A stretch of 13,094 nt of DNA from a virus (Duplodnaviria > Heunggongvirae > Uroviricota > Caudoviricetes): the IMG/VR virus record IMGVR_UViG_2703718822_000001, positions 1 through 13,094 of that record. One strand, given 5' to 3'. The stretch's first letter is position 1; each line of letters starts with the position of its first letter. Position numbers and translations under genes: made by a program. The notes beneath the pieces are model-generated. The model was given only the letters and a program-made list of their open reading frames with translations, made no database searches and was not told the DNA's origin. This document shows positions 2,818 to 13,094 of this stretch, piece by piece.

Positions 2818-3371
2818 TGATTCACCTCCTGCGGCGGTTCTGGTAGCGGCATCCAGTGGGTTGCTTGCCTAAGATCATTACCCGGACTAACTGCTATACC
2901 TCCGCGCCGGAACGTGCCTCCGAGATAGCGTGCGGAATATATTAATGGCCCTGCCTCGCTATCGATATTCATCGAAATAAGCACGTTCTGGCTCTTTTCA
3001 GGCATTCGCTCAGTACAGCTTATCCAGCCATCCGGAGTTATCGGAGATCTGGTTGACGTTTCCGAGATTTCCCGAAAATTGTTGGTTGACGAATTCTTAT
3101 TTTCCCGAAAGTTTCCGGCCTGAAGCATGGCGACGCGGCAGGCGTTCCAGCCATCAGCATATGTTTTAGTTACACCGTCGAGATGGCAGGTAAGCAAATC
3201 CATTTCATCAGGCACTACCATTGCTATCGGCTCTGCTTCCAGTGATGCCAGCGCGATACGAAACACATTAGCCAGCAGGCTGTCTGAAGACTTGTTATCG
3301 TGCGCCGAGTCGCTCAGGAAGCCTGTGATGTATGATTTAATCTCCGCGCGTTCTCTGGTAATAGTGCTCAT
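2814..3371 (-). CDS. DUF551-domain phage protein
   Basis: 185-aa ORF with AGGAA RBS 8 nt upstream of the ATG. C-terminal W/P-rich signature DGWISCTERMPE...THWMPLPEPP, typical of the lambdoid DUF551 domain as I recall it. Confidence 0.65.
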   Translation of the reverse strand: MSTITRERAEIKSYITGFLSDSAHDNKSSDSLLANVFRIALASLEAEPIAMVVPDEMDLLTCHLDGVTKTYADGWNACRVAMLQAGNFRENKNSSTNNFREISETSTRSPITPDGWISCTERMPEKSQNVLISMNIDSEAGPLIYSARYLGGTFRRGGIAVSPGNDLRQATHWMPLPEPPQEVNQ

Positions 3372-3717
3372 ATCAGTTTTCCTTATACGGATTAATTTTA
3401 TTGTGCAGTGCGCTGAATGATTCCCATGTCACATCGGTATATAGCTCAATAACTGGTTCAAATGTCCTTCCAATTATCCAGACCAGTAATAGCGGGGATA
3501 TCGGTATCATCAACACTATAAACAGAATGAAAAACAGAAACTCTGTTGTTCTGCTCTTTCGTGGGTAATTTTTTCTAAATAATGTTTCATTTCTTACCGC
3601 CCTTTCGGGCGGCCTCCTGATGTTCTGAGGGTGCAGGAATCCCTCCGGTTAAGGATTTAATAAAAATCGTTTCTGATTTAAATCTTCAGTATTTAGTTGT
3701 TAGTTGGTTTATCGCCT

Positions 3718-7036: not shown

Positions 7037-7462
7037 TTAGTGCATCACCACAGCATTCCCTGCCGGGCCGCCGCGATTTATCTGGTCATACAAAACGACC
7101 GCTGACGCAACAAAATCGTCGACATCCTTCACCAGCCGATCCCGCCGTTCGACAATCTCCCGGTAGTACTCAGAACTGTGACTGCGCATACGGGCCACCA
7201 GCAAAGGCGGCATCGCCTTTTCGATCGCCGGTAACAGAGCCTGAATTTTTTCAACAGCATCAGGGGTGTCTTTATCCAGCCAACGGAAAATTTTCTGGGT
7301 ATTACGAGCCAGGGCCTCAGGATGAGTGTCGTCGTACAGTTCCGGGAACGTCATCCCCAGTTCGAAATAAGTCCGGGCTATTTCAGCTGCGGGAACTTTC
7401 TCACCGTCAGGATATGCCCAGGCATTCATCGCCATGCGGATGTGCTCATGCTTGATTTTCAT
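7037..7462 (-). CDS. ydaT: YdaT-family protein (proposed CII-like regulator in Rac-type immunity regions)
   Basis: 141 aa, starts MKIKHEHI and ends ...VVMH, matching my recollection of Rac YdaT (about 140 aa). ATG overlaps the Cro-like stop (ATGA at 7459-7462). Third gene position as in racR-ydaS-ydaT. Confidence 0.55.
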   Translation of the reverse strand: MKIKHEHIRMAMNAWAYPDGEKVPAAEIARTYFELGMTFPELYDDTHPEALARNTQKIFRWLDKDTPDAVEKIQALLPAIEKAMPPLLVARMRSHSSEYYREIVERRDRLVKDVDDFVASAVVLYDQINRGGPAGNAVVMH

Positions 7463-7713
7463 GAATCAACTCCCAACAGCTTTTTCGTAGTAGTTTTATT
7501 TCTGCCAATAGTTAAAATTGCATCGGCAGAAAATAATCCGTTTGATGCATGAGCGATTTTTTCAGCATAATTTGTTTCGCCGGTATATTCAGTGCGAGGC
7601 AATTTTCCGTTATCCATCCATTTGTAGATTGCTCTTTGGCTGACACCACAAACGTCGGCCACAACAGAAACGCGAACAGTTTTGATTACATCTTCAAGTG
7701 TTTTCTGGTTCAT
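7459..7713 (-). CDS. Cro-like HTH repressor (DicC/YdaS family)
   Basis: Start set at ATG 7711-7713 (MNQKTLEDVIK...), with GAGGGTG RBS 6 nt upstream. The ORF-track start at 7785 would leave only 8 bp before the divergent repressor gene. HTH segment VADVCGVSQRAIYKWMDNGKLP. Confidence 0.7.
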   Translation of the reverse strand: MNQKTLEDVIKTVRVSVVADVCGVSQRAIYKWMDNGKLPRTEYTGETNYAEKIAHASNGLFSADAILTIGRNKTTTKKLLGVDS

Positions 7714-7792
7714 ATCACCCTCACAATGTGAACTTTGAGTACACTCTATAACAGAACTGACAGTACATTCAAGAGCGAATATCATTGAACTT
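7714..7792. promoter_or_regulatory. divergent immunity promoter/operator region (PR/PRM analogue)
   Basis: 79-bp AT-rich gap between the divergent Cro-like and repressor starts. Repeated GTACA-core motifs: GAGTACACT (7737-7745) and AGTACATT (7760-7767). Confidence 0.6.
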
Positions 7793-8212
7793 ATGGTTCA
7801 TGAAGATAAAGCGCGTAAAGAGTTCGCCAGTAGGCTTGCGCTAGCCTGTGAAAACGCTGGTTATGAACAACATGGAAGGCAGGCAGAAATTGCCCGTCGA
7901 ATGAAATTAACACCAAAAGCGGTTAGCAAATGGTTTAATGGCGAAACAATTCCTCGCCGAGAGAAATTAAGGGAATTAGCAACACTCATTGGAACAACAC
8001 CAACCTATCTTTTGGGAGAGGATACAGAAGAAAGTGGACAGGTACGTTTCTATCAGGAGTTAAATCCAAGACAAAAAATCATCATTGATCTTCTGGACGA
8101 GCTCCCTGACAGTGAGACAGATGAACTTTTAAAAACTCTTGAGGAGAAAAAACAAAAGTACAATGCAATTTACGAAGAGTTAGCACGAAAGAAAAAACAA
8201 AAAGCCTCTTAA
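7793..8212 (+). CDS. dicA: DicA-like (RacR-like) XRE-family HTH immunity repressor without a peptidase S24 domain
   Basis: 139 aa. HTH region GRQAEIARRMKLTPKAVSKWFNGETIPRREKLRELATLIGTTPTYLLGED. C-terminal LNPRQKIIIDLLDELPDSETDELL... resembles the DicA C-terminus as I recall it. Divergent from the Cro-like gene and followed by ydfA/B/C-dicF-dicB as in Qin. Symbol is by synteny plus resemblance. Confidence 0.7.
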   Translation: MVHEDKARKEFASRLALACENAGYEQHGRQAEIARRMKLTPKAVSKWFNGETIPRREKLRELATLIGTTPTYLLGEDTEESGQVRFYQELNPRQKIIIDLLDELPDSETDELLKTLEEKKQKYNAIYEELARKKKQKAS

Positions 8213-8275
8213 ACCAGCATAAATCCGGTAGCGTCCCCCTCCGGGTTTGTGTTTCACTTTTTCCCATCTCATTTT

Positions 8276-8335
8276 TTTACACATAAAATGTACTTAAAGT
8301 ACTTTACAACACTGAACATAAAGTACATTATATAC
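8276..8335 (+). promoter_or_regulatory. candidate repressor-controlled promoter of the downstream dicB-type operon
   Basis: AT-rich region with -35-like TTTACA (8303-8308) and -10-like CATTAT (8326-8331), overlapped by GTAC-core operator-like repeats ATGTACTTAAAGTACTTT (8287-8304) and AAGTACATT (8321-8329). The 8-mer AGTACATT is identical to that at 7760-7767. Confidence 0.4.
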
Positions 8336-8510
8336 ATACCAACCCACCCCGCCCCACAGAACGCAGGGCAATACTTCGAGTTACCAGGCAGTGGTCAGGG
8401 GTTAAGTAGCCAGCCCGAGGCGTAAGAACATGACGGCAGGGTTCAACTTTAATAACTATGCAGCAGGTTTTTGTTCCGCTACCCCGGCGTTAAGGGGAAA
8501 TGAGGTCAGC

Positions 8511-8666
8511 ATGGATACTATCGATCTTGGCAACAACGAATCTCTGGTGTACGGCGTGTTTCCAAACCAAGACGGTACGTTCACCGCGATGACGTATACC
8601 AGAAGCAAAACGTTTAAAACCGAAGCTGGCGCGCGTCGCTGGCTGGAAAGAAATTCAGGTGAGTGA
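8511..8666 (+). CDS. ydfA: YdfA-like small protein (51 aa)
   Basis: Start set at ATG 8511 (MDTIDLGNNESLVYGVFPNQ...), which has a GAGGT RBS at 5-nt spacing; the ORF-track start at 8430 has a weaker RBS. Resulting 51 aa equals the K-12 YdfA length, and it is the first gene after the DicA-like repressor. Confidence 0.55.
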   Translation: MDTIDLGNNESLVYGVFPNQDGTFTAMTYTRSKTFKTEAGARRWLERNSGE

Positions 8667-8667
8667 T

Positions 8668-8796
8668 ATGGATTTCGACGCAATCATGGAAAAGGCTTAC
8701 GAAGAATACTTCGAAGGCCTTGCCGAAGGCGAAGAAGCTCTCAGCTTCAGTGAGTTTAAACAGGCGCTTTCCAGTTCGGCAAAATCTAACGACTGA
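8668..8796 (+). CDS. ydfB: YdfB-like small acidic protein (42 aa)
   Basis: Hand-translated: MDFDAIMEKAYEEYFEGLAEGEEALSFSEFKQALSSSAKSND. ATG 1 nt after the ydfA-like TGA. 42 aa equals the K-12 YdfB length. Below the ORF-track cutoff. Confidence 0.55.
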   Translation: MDFDAIMEKAYEEYFEGLAEGEEALSFSEFKQALSSSAKSND

Positions 8797-8825
8797 TAAG
8801 CGAAGCGGCACCGCGAGGAATCAGT

Positions 8826-9041
8826 ATGCAGAAACGAGAACCCGTCATCATCGCACCAGACTATACCGAGGATGAAATTTACGAATGGATGTGCGGAAAG
8901 ATACGCGCCATTAATGACCTGAAGCAGGCCGCTGACTACAAAGAGCGCCTCTCTAAAGAACTGGTGTCAGCGGAGCAGGATATTACCACTCTGGCAAAAA
9001 GCGCGGCATTAAACGTTTCGCGAGTGATTGAAAACTACTGA
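8826..9041 (+). CDS. ydfC: YdfC-like small protein (71 aa)
   Basis: 71-aa ORF with GAGGAA RBS. Third small gene of the operon; K-12 YdfC is 72 aa as I recall. Confidence 0.55.
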   Translation: MQKREPVIIAPDYTEDEIYEWMCGKIRAINDLKQAADYKERLSKELVSAEQDITTLAKSAALNVSRVIENY

Positions 9042-9130
9042 CCAATGAGCTCAAGTAGTTCTCCGCAGATGAAGTGCGTGCGCCGGACACGGATAAACCT
9101 CCGGCATGCTCTTTAACAATCTGGATATTC

Positions 9131-9577
9131 CTAACCACAAAGAAATCGCATCAATTTGGATTTTGTGGGCAACTTCTCGTGTTGTTCGATGGAGACGCCT
9201 ATTTTGATCTGTGTTTTTAAGATCGCAATATCTTTAAGTGATGACCAAATATGATCATCTGTTTTTCCCAGAGTTTTTAACTGAATTTTCAATTCCGAAT
9301 CAGAATATTTTTCTGCATCATCAAAAAGCTGCAAATATTCTGCGGATTTTCTCATGGCATTACCTGACTTTTGTCCGAATCCATAAATCGTTTGGTCGGT
9401 TGCGATCACAACAATAAAAACGCCAGAAATTTCCGGAATGAATCCGCCAATGACAGATGAACCGAGGATAATACTCACTACTGAGAGAAGTTTATCGAGA
9501 CGACCAGTCGCTACAGAAAACAGTTGCTCAAGAAAATAGCCATATAAAATTCTGTCAAGAATATCATCCCGGTCCAT
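9131..9577 (-). CDS. reverse-oriented two-TM membrane protein; candidate superinfection-exclusion / abortive-infection effector (SieB-like position, SLATT-like topology)
   Basis: 148-aa ORF, ATG at 9575-9577 with AGGTGA RBS. Two adjacent hydrophobic helices (LLSVVSIILGSSVIGGFI and ISGVFIVVIATDQTIYGF) followed by about 78 aa of soluble, charged C-terminus. Locally AT-rich compared with neighbours. Opposite orientation to the dicA-dicB operon and lying where K-12 Qin, as I recall, has only a short ydfC-dicF spacer. Confidence 0.7.
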   Translation of the reverse strand: MDRDDILDRILYGYFLEQLFSVATGRLDKLLSVVSIILGSSVIGGFIPEISGVFIVVIATDQTIYGFGQKSGNAMRKSAEYLQLFDDAEKYSDSELKIQLKTLGKTDDHIWSSLKDIAILKTQIKIGVSIEQHEKLPTKSKLMRFLCG

Positions 9578-9636
9578 ACACCATCACCTGCTTGTGCTCT
9601 TTGCTCTGTCATATGATTTCCTTGGATCGTTGGGGA

Positions 9637-9672
9637 TATCCAGATTATACAGATTTCCTGTCGTTGGGGAAT
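9637..9672 (-). promoter_or_regulatory. candidate promoter for the 9131-9577 gene
   Basis: Perfect -10 TATAAT on the minus strand (complement of 9644-9649), preceded by TG; weak -35 TTCCCC (complement of 9667-9672) at 17-bp spacing. About 65-nt leader to the ATG. Confidence 0.35.
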
Positions 9673-9926
9673 GACGGAAACCACCTCGCCTGACGTGGTT
9701 AAAAGCAGGCACACAACACGAAAGCGCACGGCGAAGTTCGTCTCACTGCACGGTGTCGTTAAATTTAATTCGACCGTGCGCTTCCGGTTGTGGCGCCCCG
9801 CGAAATGGCGCGGCGGTAAGTATGGCGGGGGTGGGAGGGACGCCTTTCCCCGTTGAGGACACCGGGTTGTCAGGTTGACCATACGCTTAAGTGACAACCC
9901 CGCTACAACGCCCTCTGTTATCAATA

Positions 9927-9984
9927 TTCTGGTGACATTTGGCGGTATCAGTTTTACTCCGTGACTGCTCTGCCGCCCTTTTTT
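9927..9984 (+). ncRNA. dicF: DicF small RNA (ftsZ-targeting) with intrinsic terminator-like 3' end
   Basis: ttctggtgacatttggcggtatcagttttactccgtgactgctctgccgccc followed by a run of six T (9979-9984). This matches the E. coli DicF sequence as I recall it (UUUCUGGUGACGUUUGGCGGUAUCAGUUUUACUCCGUGACUGCUCUGCCGCCC) apart from about two substitutions near the 5' end. Lies 170 bp upstream of dicB as in Qin. Confidence 0.85.
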
Positions 9985-9987
9985 AAA

Positions 9988-10139
9988 AGTGAATTTTGTG
10001 ATGCGGTGAATGCGGCTCAGCGCACGCGGAACAGTTAAAACCAAAAACAGTGTTATGGGTGGATTCTCTGTATCCGGCGTTAATTGTTAACTGGTTAACG
10101 TCACCTGGAGGCACCAGGCACCGCATCACAAAATTCATT
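9988..10139. repeat. long inverted repeat (18-bp perfect core, about 21 bp extended) bracketing 110 bp between dicF and dicB
   Basis: 9991-10008 GAATTTTGTGATGCGGTG is the exact reverse complement of 10119-10136 CACCGCATCACAAAATTC; pairing extends to 9988/10139 with one G-T. The loop contains GTTAAC-TG-GTTAAC (10087-10100) and CCTGG-aggca-CCAGG (10104-10118). Confidence 0.5.
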
Positions 10140-10154
10140 GTTGAGGACGCGATA

Positions 10155-10343
10155 ATGGAAAAGTTATCATGTAATGCCAGCACGTCTGAACTTCGTTTCG
10201 AAATTGGCGTTATCACTGGAGACAAAACATTTATTGAAGACGCCATTAAGCAGAGAAAACTCGAGCAGGACCTGTTAAATGAAGTATGCATTCCTTCAAT
10301 GCTGGCTCGTCTGGACCTGCTGCAAAAAGGATATAAACAATGA
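10155..10343 (+). CDS. dicB: DicB cell-division inhibitor (MinC-dependent FtsZ antagonist)
   Basis: 62 aa: MEKLSCNASTSELRFEIGVITGDKTFIEDAIKQRKLEQDLLNEVCIPSMLARLDLLQKGYKQ. Closely parallels E. coli DicB as I recall it (same length; FEIGV...TEDAI..RK...LLN..CI.SMLARL). GAGGA RBS. Stop overlaps the ydfD-like ATG (ATGA). Confidence 0.85.
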   Translation: MEKLSCNASTSELRFEIGVITGDKTFIEDAIKQRKLEQDLLNEVCIPSMLARLDLLQKGYKQ

Positions 10344-10531
10344 ATACAACATTTGCACTCGTTCTGACAGTTTATCTTGTTTCCGGCGAATCTCTTGAGC
10401 TGGTGACTGGCTTATACGGTTCAATGAAAGAATGCATGGCTGCAGCAGCAGAACAAAAAATTCCCGGTAACTGTTATCCGGTAGATAAAACTACTCACAC
10501 TAATAATAACGAAATACCGGCAGGACTTTAA
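10340..10531 (+). CDS. ydfD: YdfD-like small protein with N-terminal hydrophobic segment (reported lysis-type protein in Qin)
   Basis: 63 aa, equal to the K-12 YdfD length, directly after dicB. N-terminal TFALVLTVYLVSG hydrophobic helix. Confidence 0.55.
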   Translation: MNTTFALVLTVYLVSGESLELVTGLYGSMKECMAAAAEQKIPGNCYPVDKTTHTNNNEIPAGL

Positions 10532-10624: not shown

Positions 10625-13094
10625 ATGAGTAAAGTCTTTATTTGCGCCGCCATTCCGGACGAACAGGCAATAAAAGAAGAGGGCGCAGTTGCTGTAGCCA
10701 CTGCCATTGAAGCCGGTGATGAACGCCGCGCCCGTGCCAAATTTACCTGGCAATTCCTGGAGCAATATCCTGCTGCTCAGGACTGCGCTTATAAATTTCT
10801 TGTCTGCGAAGATAAACCCGGCATGCCCCGCCCTGCTATCGACTCCTGGGATACCGAATATATGCAGGAAAACCGCTGGGATGAGGAATCCGCTTCCTTT
10901 ATTCCGGTCGAACCAGAATCCGATCCTATTAACGTCAATTTTGACAAGCTGTCCCTTGAAGTACAGAACGCGGCCCTAGTTAAGTTCGGTACATGTGAAA
11001 ACATCACCGTTGATATGGCGATTGACGCGCAGGAATTACTGCAAGAAGACGTGGCTACCTTTGACGGGCATATCGTTGAAGCACTGATGAAAACGCCTGA
11101 AATTAACGCTATGTATCCGGAACGCAAACTGTTCGCTATCGGATGGGTTAAACACAAATGTAAGCCGGGTACCAAATGGCCCGAAATTCAGGCTGAATTA
11201 CGTAACTGGAAAAAACGGCAGGACGCAGAGCGCAAAGAGACTGGAAAATACACGTCTGTTGTTGATCTTGCCCGCGCCAAAGCCAACCGACAGCACACTG
11301 AAAACCCAGCAGAAAAAATCCCTCCTGTAACTGCCGCCATTCATCGCGAATACAAGCAGACATGGAAAACCCTGGACAGGGAGCTGGCCTACTATCTCTG
11401 GCCTGGTGATGCGGATGCCGGAAACATTGACGGCAGCATCCTTCGCTGGGCTAAAAATGAAATTATCGCCAGAGATCGCGAAGACTGGAAGCGCATCTCC
11501 GCATCAATGCGCAAACAACCTGATGCGCTTCGCTACAGCCGCCAGACTATTTTTGGCCTTGTCCGTGAACGCCCGATCGACATTCACAAAGATCCCGTGG
11601 CACTGAACAAATACATCACTGAATACCTGACTACAAAGGGCGTGTTTGAAGATGACGAAGGAACAAATCAGGGCACAGCTAATACTCTCTCGTCGCCAGT
11701 ACCAGAAACTGACGCAGTGGAAACGGCAATTCAGGACAACGAAAAAACCGAATGCAAAGTGGAAGTCGAATCATCTGTAGAGCGTGAGGGGCCGTTCTAC
11801 TTCCTCTTCACCGACAAGGATGGCGAAAAATACGGTCGCGCAAACAAACTTTCTGGTCTGGATAAGGCACTGGCTGCCGGGGCTACTGAAATCACGAAAG
11901 AAGAATATTTCGCCCGCAAAAACAGTACATACTCAGGTTCACAACAAAATACTGGTGCATCTGACACGACCGCACAACCAGAGCCGGTAAAAGTTACCGC
12001 TGACGAAGTAAACAAAATTATGCAGGCAGCCAATATCAGCCAGCCTGACGCCGATAAGTTGCTTGCTGCCTCTCGCGGAGAATTTGTTGCAGGGATTAGC
12101 GACCCGAATGATCCGAAATGGGTTAAGGGGATCCAGACCCGCGATTCTGTAAACCAGAACCAGCATGAATCGGAACGGAACTACCAAAAAGCGGAACAAA
12201 ACAGCCCAAATGCGTTACAAAACGAGCCAGAAACGAAACAGCCTGAACCAGTGGCGCAACAGGAAGTGGAAAAAGTCTGCACCGCCTGCGGTCAGACCGA
12301 CGGCGGCAACTGCCCTGATTGTGGCGCGGTGATGGGCGACGCAACATACCAGGAAACATTCGATGAAGAGTATCAGGTTGAAGTTCAGGAAGATGATCCG
12401 GAGAAAATGGAAGGCGCTGAACATCCACACAAGGAGAACACTGGCGGCAATCAGCATCACGATAGCGATAATGAAACTGGCGAGACGGCAGATCACTCAA
12501 TTAAGGTGAACAGTCATCAAGAAATCACATCCACCAGCAGGACGTGTGACCATCTAATGATCGACCTTGAAACCATGGGAAAAAATCCTGATGCCCCGAT
12601 CATCTCAATAGGTGCAATATTTTTCGATCCGCAAACCGGAGATATGGGACCGGAATTTAGTAAGACTATCGATCTGGAAACTGCTGGCGGAGTCATTGAT
12701 CGGGACACCATTAAATGGTGGCTTAAGCAATCACGCGAAGCGCAATCTGCCATTATGACCGATGAAATCCCGTTAGATGATGCACTGTTACAATTGCGGG
12801 AATTTATCGACGAAAACTCCGGTGAATTTTTTGTTCAGGTCTGGGGAAATGGAGCCAACTTCGACAACACGATTTTGCGCCGTTCATACGAACGGCAGGG
12901 GATCCCCTGCCCGTGGCGTTACTACAACGATCGCGATGTACGCACAATCGTTGAGCTGGGGAAAGCCATAGACTTCGATGCCAGAACGGCTATTCCATTC
13001 GAAGGTGAGCGCCATAATGCACTTGATGACGCCCGTTACCAGGCAAAATACGTTTCAGTTATCTGGCAAAAACTGATCCCGAGTCAGGCTGATT
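10625..13094 (+). CDS. large early-left-operon protein (at least 823 aa, 3' end beyond window) with C4 zinc ribbon and DEDDh 3'-5' exonuclease domain; YdfE/RecE-position protein
   Basis: I hand-checked codon by codon: ATG at 10625 (GAGGT RBS 9 nt upstream) and no in-frame stop through 13093. Absent from the ORF track only because it runs off the window. Zinc ribbon CTACGQTDGGNCPDCG at about 12283-12330. Exonuclease motifs: Exo I MIDLETMG (about 12557-12580), Exo II GNGANFDNTIL, Exo III HNALDDARYQAKY (His codon 13013-13015). Confidence 0.8.
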   Translation, partial: MSKVFICAAIPDEQAIKEEGAVAVATAIEAGDERRARAKFTWQFLEQYPAAQDCAYKFLVCEDKPGMPRPAIDSWDTEYMQENRWDEESASFIPVEPESDPINVNFDKLSLEVQNAALVKFGTCENITVDMAIDAQELLQEDVATFDGHIVEALMKTPEINAMYPERKLFAIGWVKHKCKPGTKWPEIQAELRNWKKRQDAERKETGKYTSVVDLARAKANRQHTENPAEKIPPVTAAIHREYKQTWKTLDRELAYYLWPGDADAGNIDGSILRWAKNEIIARDREDWKRISASMRKQPDALRYSRQTIFGLVRERPIDIHKDPVALNKYITEYLTTKGVFEDDEGTNQGTANTLSSPVPETDAVETAIQDNEKTECKVEVESSVEREGPFYFLFTDKDGEKYGRANKLSGLDKALAAGATEITKEEYFARKNSTYSGSQQNTGASDTTAQPEPVKVTADEVNKIMQAANISQPDADKLLAASRGEFVAGISDPNDPKWVKGIQTRDSVNQNQHESERNYQKAEQNSPNALQNEPETKQPEPVAQQEVEKVCTACGQTDGGNCPDCGAVMGDATYQETFDEEYQVEVQEDDPEKMEGAEHPHKENTGGNQHHDSDNETGETADHSIKVNSHQEITSTSRTCDHLMIDLETMGKNPDAPIISIGAIFFDPQTGDMGPEFSKTIDLETAGGVIDRDTIKWWLKQSREAQSAIMTDEIPLDDALLQLREFIDENSGEFFVQVWGNGANFDNTILRRSYERQGIPCPWRYYNDRDVRTIVELGKAIDFDARTAIPFEGERHNALDDARYQAKYVSVIWQKLIPSQAD

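Follow-up and report, generated by a model that had tools for sequence, protein, structure and literature searches.

We find that the immunity region of a Qin-like prophage very probably works as a switch in which HK022-type operators are bound by a 139-aa repressor, a reading that draws on sequence comparison and on analogy with related phages. The locus is an ordinary lambdoid OR/OL immunity region. Its sites are of a type already mapped in phage HK022, its layout is known from other lambdoid phages, and its one unusual feature is a hybrid repressor. An earlier note on this DNA had proposed that a DicA-like repressor acts through GTAC-core operators on two promoters, one in the divergent switch and one downstream of the repressor gene. 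The logic of one repressor acting on both promoters is upheld by homology; the operator anatomy and the DicA-type specificity are not.

Locus and genomic context

By its Rfam and Pfam matches and its gene order, the window (the whole 13,094-nt stretch of DNA analysed) is a segment of a Qin-like lambdoid prophage, with the gene order of K-12 Qin and of the sequenced phage Tritos. The locus studied here comprises the divergent region between the cro-like and repressor genes, the repressor gene, and the AT-rich stretch 3' of it (Table 1). Of 5426 complete E. coli genomes, 1041 (~19 per cent) cover at least 80 per cent of the 1.2-kb stretch from 7400 to 8600. The best match to this stretch was 99.6 per cent identical, and phage Tritos was 96 per cent identical.

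The ydfABC-dicF-dicB operon is probably co-transcribed, judging from K-12 data (PMC10448788). Folding of the pL leader (8338-8515) was no more stable than that of shuffled sequences (z = +1.5), and even with a permissive threshold Rfam gave just two chance-level matches in 8200-8560. None of 200 shuffles folded as well as the stable hairpin found 3' of the repressor stop codon, and among close relatives the loop of this hairpin is far more variable than its stem. It is possibly the terminator of the repressor transcript; the terminator scan did not call it.

Table 1. Features of the immunity region and the genes around it, in window coordinates, followed by the annotated operators of HK75.
Feature	Coordinates	Strand	Description
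YdaT-like protein	7037-7462		Pfam match
cro-like gene (dicC position)	7459-7713	-	84 aa; GAGGGTG Shine-Dalgarno upstream of ATG at 7713
OR1	7729-7743	.	TGAACTTTGAGTACA; centre 7736; contains GAGTACA element; right half is GAGTACACT; pattern and matrix
Probable pR -10	7743-7750	-	TATAGA (7750-7745) or TAGAGT (7748-7743); between OR1 and OR2; homology to HK022 pR -10
OR2	7753-7767	.	AGAACTGACAGTACA; centre 7760; right half is first AGTACATT; pattern and matrix
Probable repressor-maintenance promoter (pRM analogue)	7757-7785	+	CTGACA-17-TATCAT; promoter scan, 10/12 matches
Probable pR -35	7767-7772	-	TTGAAT; overlaps last base of OR2; equivalent to annotated HK022/HK75 pR -35 TTGACT
OR3	7786-7800	.	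TGAACTTATGGTTCA; centre 7793; spans repressor ATG; without GTAC
Immunity repressor	7793-8212	+	139 aa; HK022-type HTH domain and short DicA-type C-terminal part
Stable hairpin 3' of repressor stop	8216-8253	+	dG -17 kcal/mol, z = -5.0
OL2	8289-8303	.	TGTACTTAAAGTACT; centre 8296; bears minus-strand AGTACATT and AAGTACTT (right half); pattern and matrix
pL analogue (dicBp position)	8303-8331	+	TTTACA-17-CATTAT; promoter scan; predicted start near 8338
OL1	8313-8327	.	TGAACATAAAGTACA; centre 8320; between pL -35 and -10; right half is second AGTACATT; pattern and matrix
Predicted operon read from pL analogue	8338-10343	+	leader, ydfA, ydfB, ydfC, DicF, dicB
ydfA	8511-8666	+	Pfam DUF1391/YdfA
ydfB	8668-8796	+	
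ydfC	8826-9041	+	
DicF	9927-9978	+	Rfam, 77 bits
dicB	~10155-10343	+	Pfam DicB
YdfD-like DUF1482 protein	10340-10531		Pfam match
HK75 oR1, oR3			TGAACTTATGGTTCA; annotated 15-mer
HK75 oR2			GGAACTGATAGTACA; annotated 15-mer
HK75 OFR			GGAACTAAAAGTACA; annotated 15-mer
HK75 oL1			TGAACTTTAGGTAC(A); aligns with window OL1
HK75 oL2			TGTACTACTGGTACT; aligns with window OL2

Five bipartite operators

The 8-mer AGTACATT is present in both regions, as first reported, though its first copy lies at 7762-7769, two positions away from the 7760-7767 originally given. The second plus-strand copy is at 8322-8329, and a minus-strand copy at 8287-8294 had been overlooked. The related elements described for each region are also in place (GAGTACACT at 7737-7745 and AAGTACTT at 8297-8304). 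Across the window the three copies of AGTACATT compare with 0.27 expected, and one of 200 shuffles reaches three. Taken alone, the literal observation of a shared 8-mer is weak, since an 8-mer common to both intergenic stretches arose in 1422 of 5000 local shuffles (28 per cent). GTAC was rejected as an enriched core, with 29 occurrences in the window versus 27 expected.

The operator unit consists of the half-sites TGAAC and GTWCA with 5 bp between them, 15 bp in total. In OR1, OR2, OL2, and OL1 the right half-site is a GTAC element, so that what had been called the operator core is actually one half of a TGAAC-N5-GTWCA operator. The left halves had been missed, as had the whole of OR3 (TGAACTTATGGTTCA), which lacks GTAC. 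The flanks that had been counted as motif are unconserved, with GAGTACACT reading GAGTACATG in most close relatives. As for the ATT that follows GTACA and extends the shared 8-mer, different promoter elements happen to overlap there in the two regions: it is part of the pL -10 (CATTAT) in one and of the pR -35 (TTGAAT, minus strand) in the other.

The pattern GWAC-N5-GTWC has five matches in 13 kb, all of them in the two regions, where 0.54 would be expected; none of 200 shuffles reaches five. We also built a weight matrix solely from the sites of distant relatives (described below). It scored the five sites at 16.6-21.1 bits, with OR3 at the top (21.1 bits), and gave no other site in the window more than 9.0, the level of shuffled sequence. 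The centre-to-centre spacing is 24 bp for OR1-OR2 and for OL2-OL1 and 33 bp for OR2-OR3, and the OR1-OR2 and OL2-OL1 segments set in register are identical at 32 of 51 positions.

These counts bear on the simplest alternative, that two AT-rich promoter regions resemble each other by chance and share no regulator. Such a likeness would accommodate both the frequency of a shared 8-mer in local shuffles and the lack of GTAC enrichment. It does not account for the excess of the bipartite pattern or the in-register identity, nor for site positions that are conserved across genera and a matrix from distant relatives that picks the same five sites, and we consider its probability close to nil.

Comparison with HK022 and HK75

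In a DNA search of phage records, positions 7543-7953 of the window were ~70 per cent identical to the cro-cI region of HK022, HK75, and relatives. We therefore compared the sites with the operators annotated in GenBank X16093 (HK022) and HM173637 (HK75). The operators in these phages are likewise TGAAC-N5-GTWCA, with the same 24/33-bp spacing in OR and OR3 lying over the repressor ATG. OR3 is identical in sequence to the annotated oR1 and oR3 of HK75, and OR1 occupies the position of HK75 oR1. Their OL1 and OL2 are also 24 bp apart and are placed in the same way on a pL of the form TTTACA-17-CATYAT. Positions 8280-8331 align nearly base for base with the HK75 oL/pL region, in which both sites and both hexamers are kept. 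Binding and cooperative occupancy by the HK022 repressor come from the experimental work of Carlson and Little (1993), as cited in PMC8053113.

The likeness extends to the proteins (57 per cent identity for the repressor DNA-binding domain and 58 per cent for Cro), but the two systems also differ. HK022 CI is ~235 aa long and has a LexA-like domain (peptidase S24), which the 139-aa repressor of the window lacks. HK022 and HK75 have oL1-3, and OFR, a distal operator downstream of cro, lies ~330-343 bp upstream of the repressor start in HK75 and in the related loci L094, L097, L099, and L101, whereas in the window no third OL site and no OFR-like sixth site scored above the level of shuffles with the matrix. 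The strongest further candidate, at 12823-12837, was rejected at 9.0 bits versus a mean shuffle maximum of 8.4. None of the HK022 nun and put elements align in the window, its pL reads ydfABC-dicF-dicB, and a YdaT/CII-like gene replaces HK022 cII. Literature searches linking HK022 with DicA, or on OFR, found nothing relevant.

Conservation among relatives

We examined two sets of relatives. The close relatives are ~80 IMG/VR loci whose repressors are at least 99 per cent identical, and their OL regions represent 31 usable haplotypes. Among these haplotypes, eight of ten spacer columns in the OL region are variable compared with four of twenty half-site columns (Fisher P = 0.004), and the four variable half-site columns differ in just one or two haplotypes each. 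Set against ordinary intergenic columns (23 of 93 variable), the half-sites (4 of 20) are not clearly more conserved, so the evidence from close relatives is modest.

The evidence from distant relatives is stronger. We used the alignment of the N-terminal domain to scan species-representative genomes and recovered 27 loci, which belong to Shigella, Klebsiella, Enterobacter, Kluyvera, Brenneria, Pantoea, Providencia, Haemophilus, Volucribacter, Gallibacterium, and Pseudomonas. These loci were chosen by peptide pattern only, and DNA sites were no selection criterion; conservation of the recognition helix is therefore partly built in. An OR1-OR2 pair 24 bp apart lies directly upstream of the repressor gene in 23 of 25 loci (L087-L111), most of which carry three GWAC-N5-GTWC sites at -63, -39, and -6 from the repressor ATG. 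OR1 of the window corresponds to the site kept at -63, and OR3 to the site at -6 in enterobacterial relatives; in Pasteurellaceae and Pantoea the positions are shifted. Wherever the flank reaches far enough, an OL pair 24 bp apart is also found 3' of the repressor gene. The N5 spacers vary freely. Absence of the motif from homologues had been named as grounds for giving up the original proposal, and we found it present in homologues of several genera.

As negative controls we used K-12 Qin, phage Evi, and an Actinobacillus phage, all of them heteroimmune, with short repressors of the DicA type whose N-terminal domains are different. There were no matches to GWAC-N5-GTWC in 3-4 kb of each.

These alignments also speak to whether the unit recognised might be a palindrome of just 8-12 bp centred on GTAC, for example AAAGTACTTT, in place of the 15-bp bipartite site. 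The window does contain a perfect 12-bp palindrome centred on GTAC (TAAAGTACTTTA at 8295-8306), and AGTACWYT occurs six times versus 0.81 expected. Yet the spacer-side flanks of GTAC vary freely both in close relatives and across genera, and many sites, including OR3, have GTTC in place of GTAC. Each GTAC element here is matched by a GWAC partner exactly 5 bp away, and 15 bp is also the annotated length of the homologous HK022 sites. We regard a palindromic unit as very unlikely.

The repressor and the Cro-like protein

Pfam finds only HTH_3 and HTH domains in the repressor, with no peptidase S24 match. Its first 76 residues are 57 per cent identical to the N-terminal domain of HK75 CI, TPKA(V/I)SKWFNGE is conserved, and the recognition-helix stretch is that of HK75 CI except for one I/V change. 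Identity to DicA in this domain is 29 per cent over 45 aa. A comparison with solved structures gave nothing beyond a weak similarity to the N-terminal domain of P22 C2 (E = 0.006).

Residues 77-139 do not match the LexA-like C-terminal domain of HK75. Over 47 aa they share 28 per cent identity with the C-terminal part of K-12 DicA, and they share 32 per cent with that of a protein labelled DicA in an Actinobacillus phage. This homology is weak but consistent, and an L..LP.SE.D motif is common to all three C-terminal parts. With an HK022-like N-terminal domain and a DicA-like C-terminal part, the repressor is, from its sequence, a hybrid of an HK022-type DNA-binding domain and a short DicA-type C-terminal part. 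The description of the repressor as DicA-like thus holds for the C-terminal part only; its DNA-binding domain is HK022-type. Repressors of the other relatives are 200-252 aa long from the matched start, and only the window type, including an identical copy in Shigella, has 139 aa. Because its C-terminal part differs from that of HK022 CI, the strong cooperativity of HK022 CI cannot be assumed for it.

The Cro-like protein has only weak HTH matches in Pfam. In an alignment that begins at Met1 and spans 71 aa, its identity to HK75/HK022-type Cro is 58 per cent.

A repressor whose C-terminal part is not of the HK022 type, in a class of prophages many of which are defective, might mean that the sites are inherited relics. 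The hybrid would then have drifted in specificity or would no longer bind, leaving the downstream promoter under H-NS or the Cro-like protein alone. What we observe argues against this: the arrangement is intact in the 1041 complete E. coli genomes and in phage Tritos, half-sites are kept while spacers drift, and the recognition-helix stretch is nearly unchanged from that of HK75 CI. We consider it very unlikely that the sites are relics.

Still less probable, and in our view extremely unlikely, is that the sites serve the YdaT/CII-like protein, whose gene adjoins cro, and not the repressor. This protein matches the PHROG family 'CII-like transcriptional activator' and is encoded in the same module. 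The cII genes of HK022 and HK75 are unrelated to it, yet their operators are the same; across loci, the operators track the N-terminal domain of the repressor; and the Actinobacillus phage, which has a YdaT-like gene but another repressor, is without the sites. The repressor remains our preferred ligand.

Promoters and the proposed switch

We infer three promoters at the locus, pR, pRM, and pL, from promoter scanning and from their counterparts in HK022 and HK75. Neither candidate for the pR -10 fits the consensus well, and the promoter scan called neither TATAGA nor TAGAGT. From the positions of the two pR elements, OR2 would cover the spacer and touch the -35, and OR1 would cover the start region. 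Both hexamers of the pRM analogue are conserved in position across genera. Only 7 nt separate the end of its -10 from the ATG at 7793, so the repressor mRNA may be leaderless. The pL analogue has the hexamers and spacing of the annotated HK75 pL (TTTACA-17-CATCAT). OL1 fills its spacer and touches the -10, and OL2 abuts the -35.

In the switch that we propose, each 15-bp site is most likely bound by a repressor dimer through the HTH domain that it shares by homology with HK022 CI. Binding, promoter use, and cooperativity are predicted here from homology to HK022, and the Cro-like protein would be expected to bind the same sites. Repressor at OR1 and OR2 would shut off pR, which reads cro, and with it the lytic-side genes. 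OR3, over the repressor start and just downstream of the probable pRM, may serve for autoregulation and as a target for Cro. At OL2 and OL1, bound repressor would block the pL-like promoter and leave ydfA-ydfB-ydfC-dicF-dicB untranscribed.

This arrangement resembles that of lambda, where one repressor also acts on two operator clusters flanking its gene, the promoter-proximal operator pair has the same 24-bp centre-to-centre spacing, and the maintenance transcript is leaderless. The lambda operators are 17 bp long and unrelated in sequence to those of the window. A second oddity, this one family-wide, is that the proposed pRM -35 appears to lie in the central spacer of OR2, with OR3 centred on the start codon, whereas the lambda -35 lies beside OR2. 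Given this difference, the effect of the repressor on its own promoter is uncertain.

Comparison with K-12 Qin

The immunity regions of the window and of K-12 Qin share the gene order cro-like, repressor, promoter, ydfA, ydfB, ydfC, DicF, dicB, ydfD. Both encode a short repressor without a cleavage domain, with homologous C-terminal parts. The dicBp promoter of K-12 is under DicA repression, with operator-like sequences both in the dicA-dicC interval and at dicBp itself (PMC10448788). The window also has an operator inside the promoter driving the dicBF operon, and dicBp is in the equivalent place (PMC10448788).

The specificity differs. The tested operator of K-12 DicA, Oc, is TTGTTAGTCATAACTAACAA (PMC3441716), and both intergenic regions of K-12 contain TTAG...CTAA repeats related to it. 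No Oc-type operator (a TTAGT-N5-ACTAA inverted repeat) was found in the immunity region of the window, and with one mismatch allowed TTAG-N7-CTAA had two matches in the window versus 3.1 expected, both outside that region. The DNA-binding domain of DicA is P22 C2-like and only 29 per cent identical to that of the window repressor, and the DNA of the window and that of K-12 become homologous again only ~35 bp upstream of ydfA. With operator, DNA-binding domain, and DNA homology all different, the two prophages are expected to be heteroimmune: the Qin architecture is kept and the specificity module exchanged. The comparisons support an immunity region of HK022-type operator/repressor specificity, not DicA-type.

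Implications

One possible reading of the hybrid repressor, which we put forward tentatively and would not yet call probable, is a natural domain swap that left it with a non-cleavable C-terminal part, with a host immune to HK022-type phages and induction independent of RecA. If the repressor binds HK022 operators, this prophage type, present in about one-fifth of complete E. coli genomes, would immunise its host against HK022-type phages; such cross-immunity is a prediction. If the domain swap is real, induction would take a RecA-independent route, for example by way of an antirepressor or of instability of the repressor, as reported for DicA, and the operator code would still be that of an SOS-inducible phage family.

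The general view of how such switches work is unchanged by these findings. What they offer is a base-level map of the switch controlling dicF and dicB in prophages of a type found in ~19 per cent of complete E. coli genomes. Since this switch follows the HK022 code and not that of K-12 DicA, operator results obtained with K-12 DicA are not transferable to these strains. The locus also illustrates lambdoid mosaicism inside a single protein, with a DNA-binding domain and operators from one lineage and a C-terminal control part from another.

Gene starts at the switch and in the putative pL operon

The cro-like gene of phage Tritos, TRITO_34 (positions 3059-3385 of its locus, L003), is annotated at 108 aa, a reading that corresponds to a start at the minus-strand ATG at 7785 in the window. 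A frame opened there would add 7714-7785 and cross the putative operators OR1 and OR2 as well as the predicted pR promoter. The predicted start at 7713, giving 84 aa, is supported over the one at 7785, since Cro of phage HK75 aligns from Met1 and a GAGGGTG Shine-Dalgarno sequence is present. Tritos ydfA is likewise annotated as a longer protein, of 78 aa, which in the window would begin at ATG 8430, and other records probably carry the same annotation. The 51-aa YdfA of E. coli K-12 corresponds to ATG 8511, with GAGG as its Shine-Dalgarno sequence; in the region upstream (8430-8510), homology to K-12 begins only at about 8475.

Features around the repressor gene and putative pL operon

Directly 3' of the repressor stop codon lies a stable hairpin (ΔG = -17 kcal/mol, z = -5.0) followed by a T-rich stretch. 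Among close relatives its stem is far less variable than its loop. Transcription of the repressor gene may terminate at this hairpin, which was not called in a terminator scan.

Downstream of the predicted pL promoter, the untranslated leader is conserved as a module roughly 165 nt long, with 98.8% identity in phage Evi and 75.9% in Actinobacillus phage vB_Apl-pPE4. Both phages are heteroimmune and also have DicA-type short repressors. The module was not found in the K-12 Qin prophage and had no match in Rfam, and its folding was no more stable than that of shuffled sequences (z = +1.5).

Between ydfC and DicF sits an insertion of about 550 bp with a low GC content (33-40%) and no counterpart in K-12 Qin or phage Tritos. 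The product of its ORF matched PHROG 6315 (unknown function) and had no match in Pfam. Because this ORF lies on the minus strand, the insertion is an antisense 'moron' inside the putative pL operon.

Features of the window and half-site variants at equivalent positions in close relatives
Feature	Position	Strand	Details
OR1 half-site variant	7739-7743		GAGCACA
Conserved OR2 stretch	7757-7762		CTGA[C/T/A]A
Hairpin	8216-8253
OL2 half-site variant	8299-8303		AAGCAC
OL1 half-site variants	8323-8327		AAGTGCA or AAGTACG
pL leader module	8336-8500
ydfC-DicF insertion	9060-9610
ORF in insertion	9131-9577	minus	148 aa, hydrophobic stretch at centre

Operator variation among relatives

A few IMG/VR haplotypes among the close relatives (L006-L085) have single half-site changes, which may reflect either sequencing errors or naturally occurring operator mutations. 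All three OR sites are present on L095 (NZ_JBEOWA010000103.1, 1026 bp), a contig of a Streptomyces sp. assembly with an enterobacterial HK022-type cI start; it is probably a contaminant of that assembly.

Conservation of the 5-bp spacer in OR2 is unusually strong between genera, as compared at the same position in the 25 distant-relative loci (L087-L111); the conserved stretch includes the final base of the left half-site. It coincides with the -35 element of the probable maintenance promoter. If the stretch is that element, repressor and RNA polymerase would use one DNA segment, in a geometry that differs from that of OR2 and pRM in lambda.
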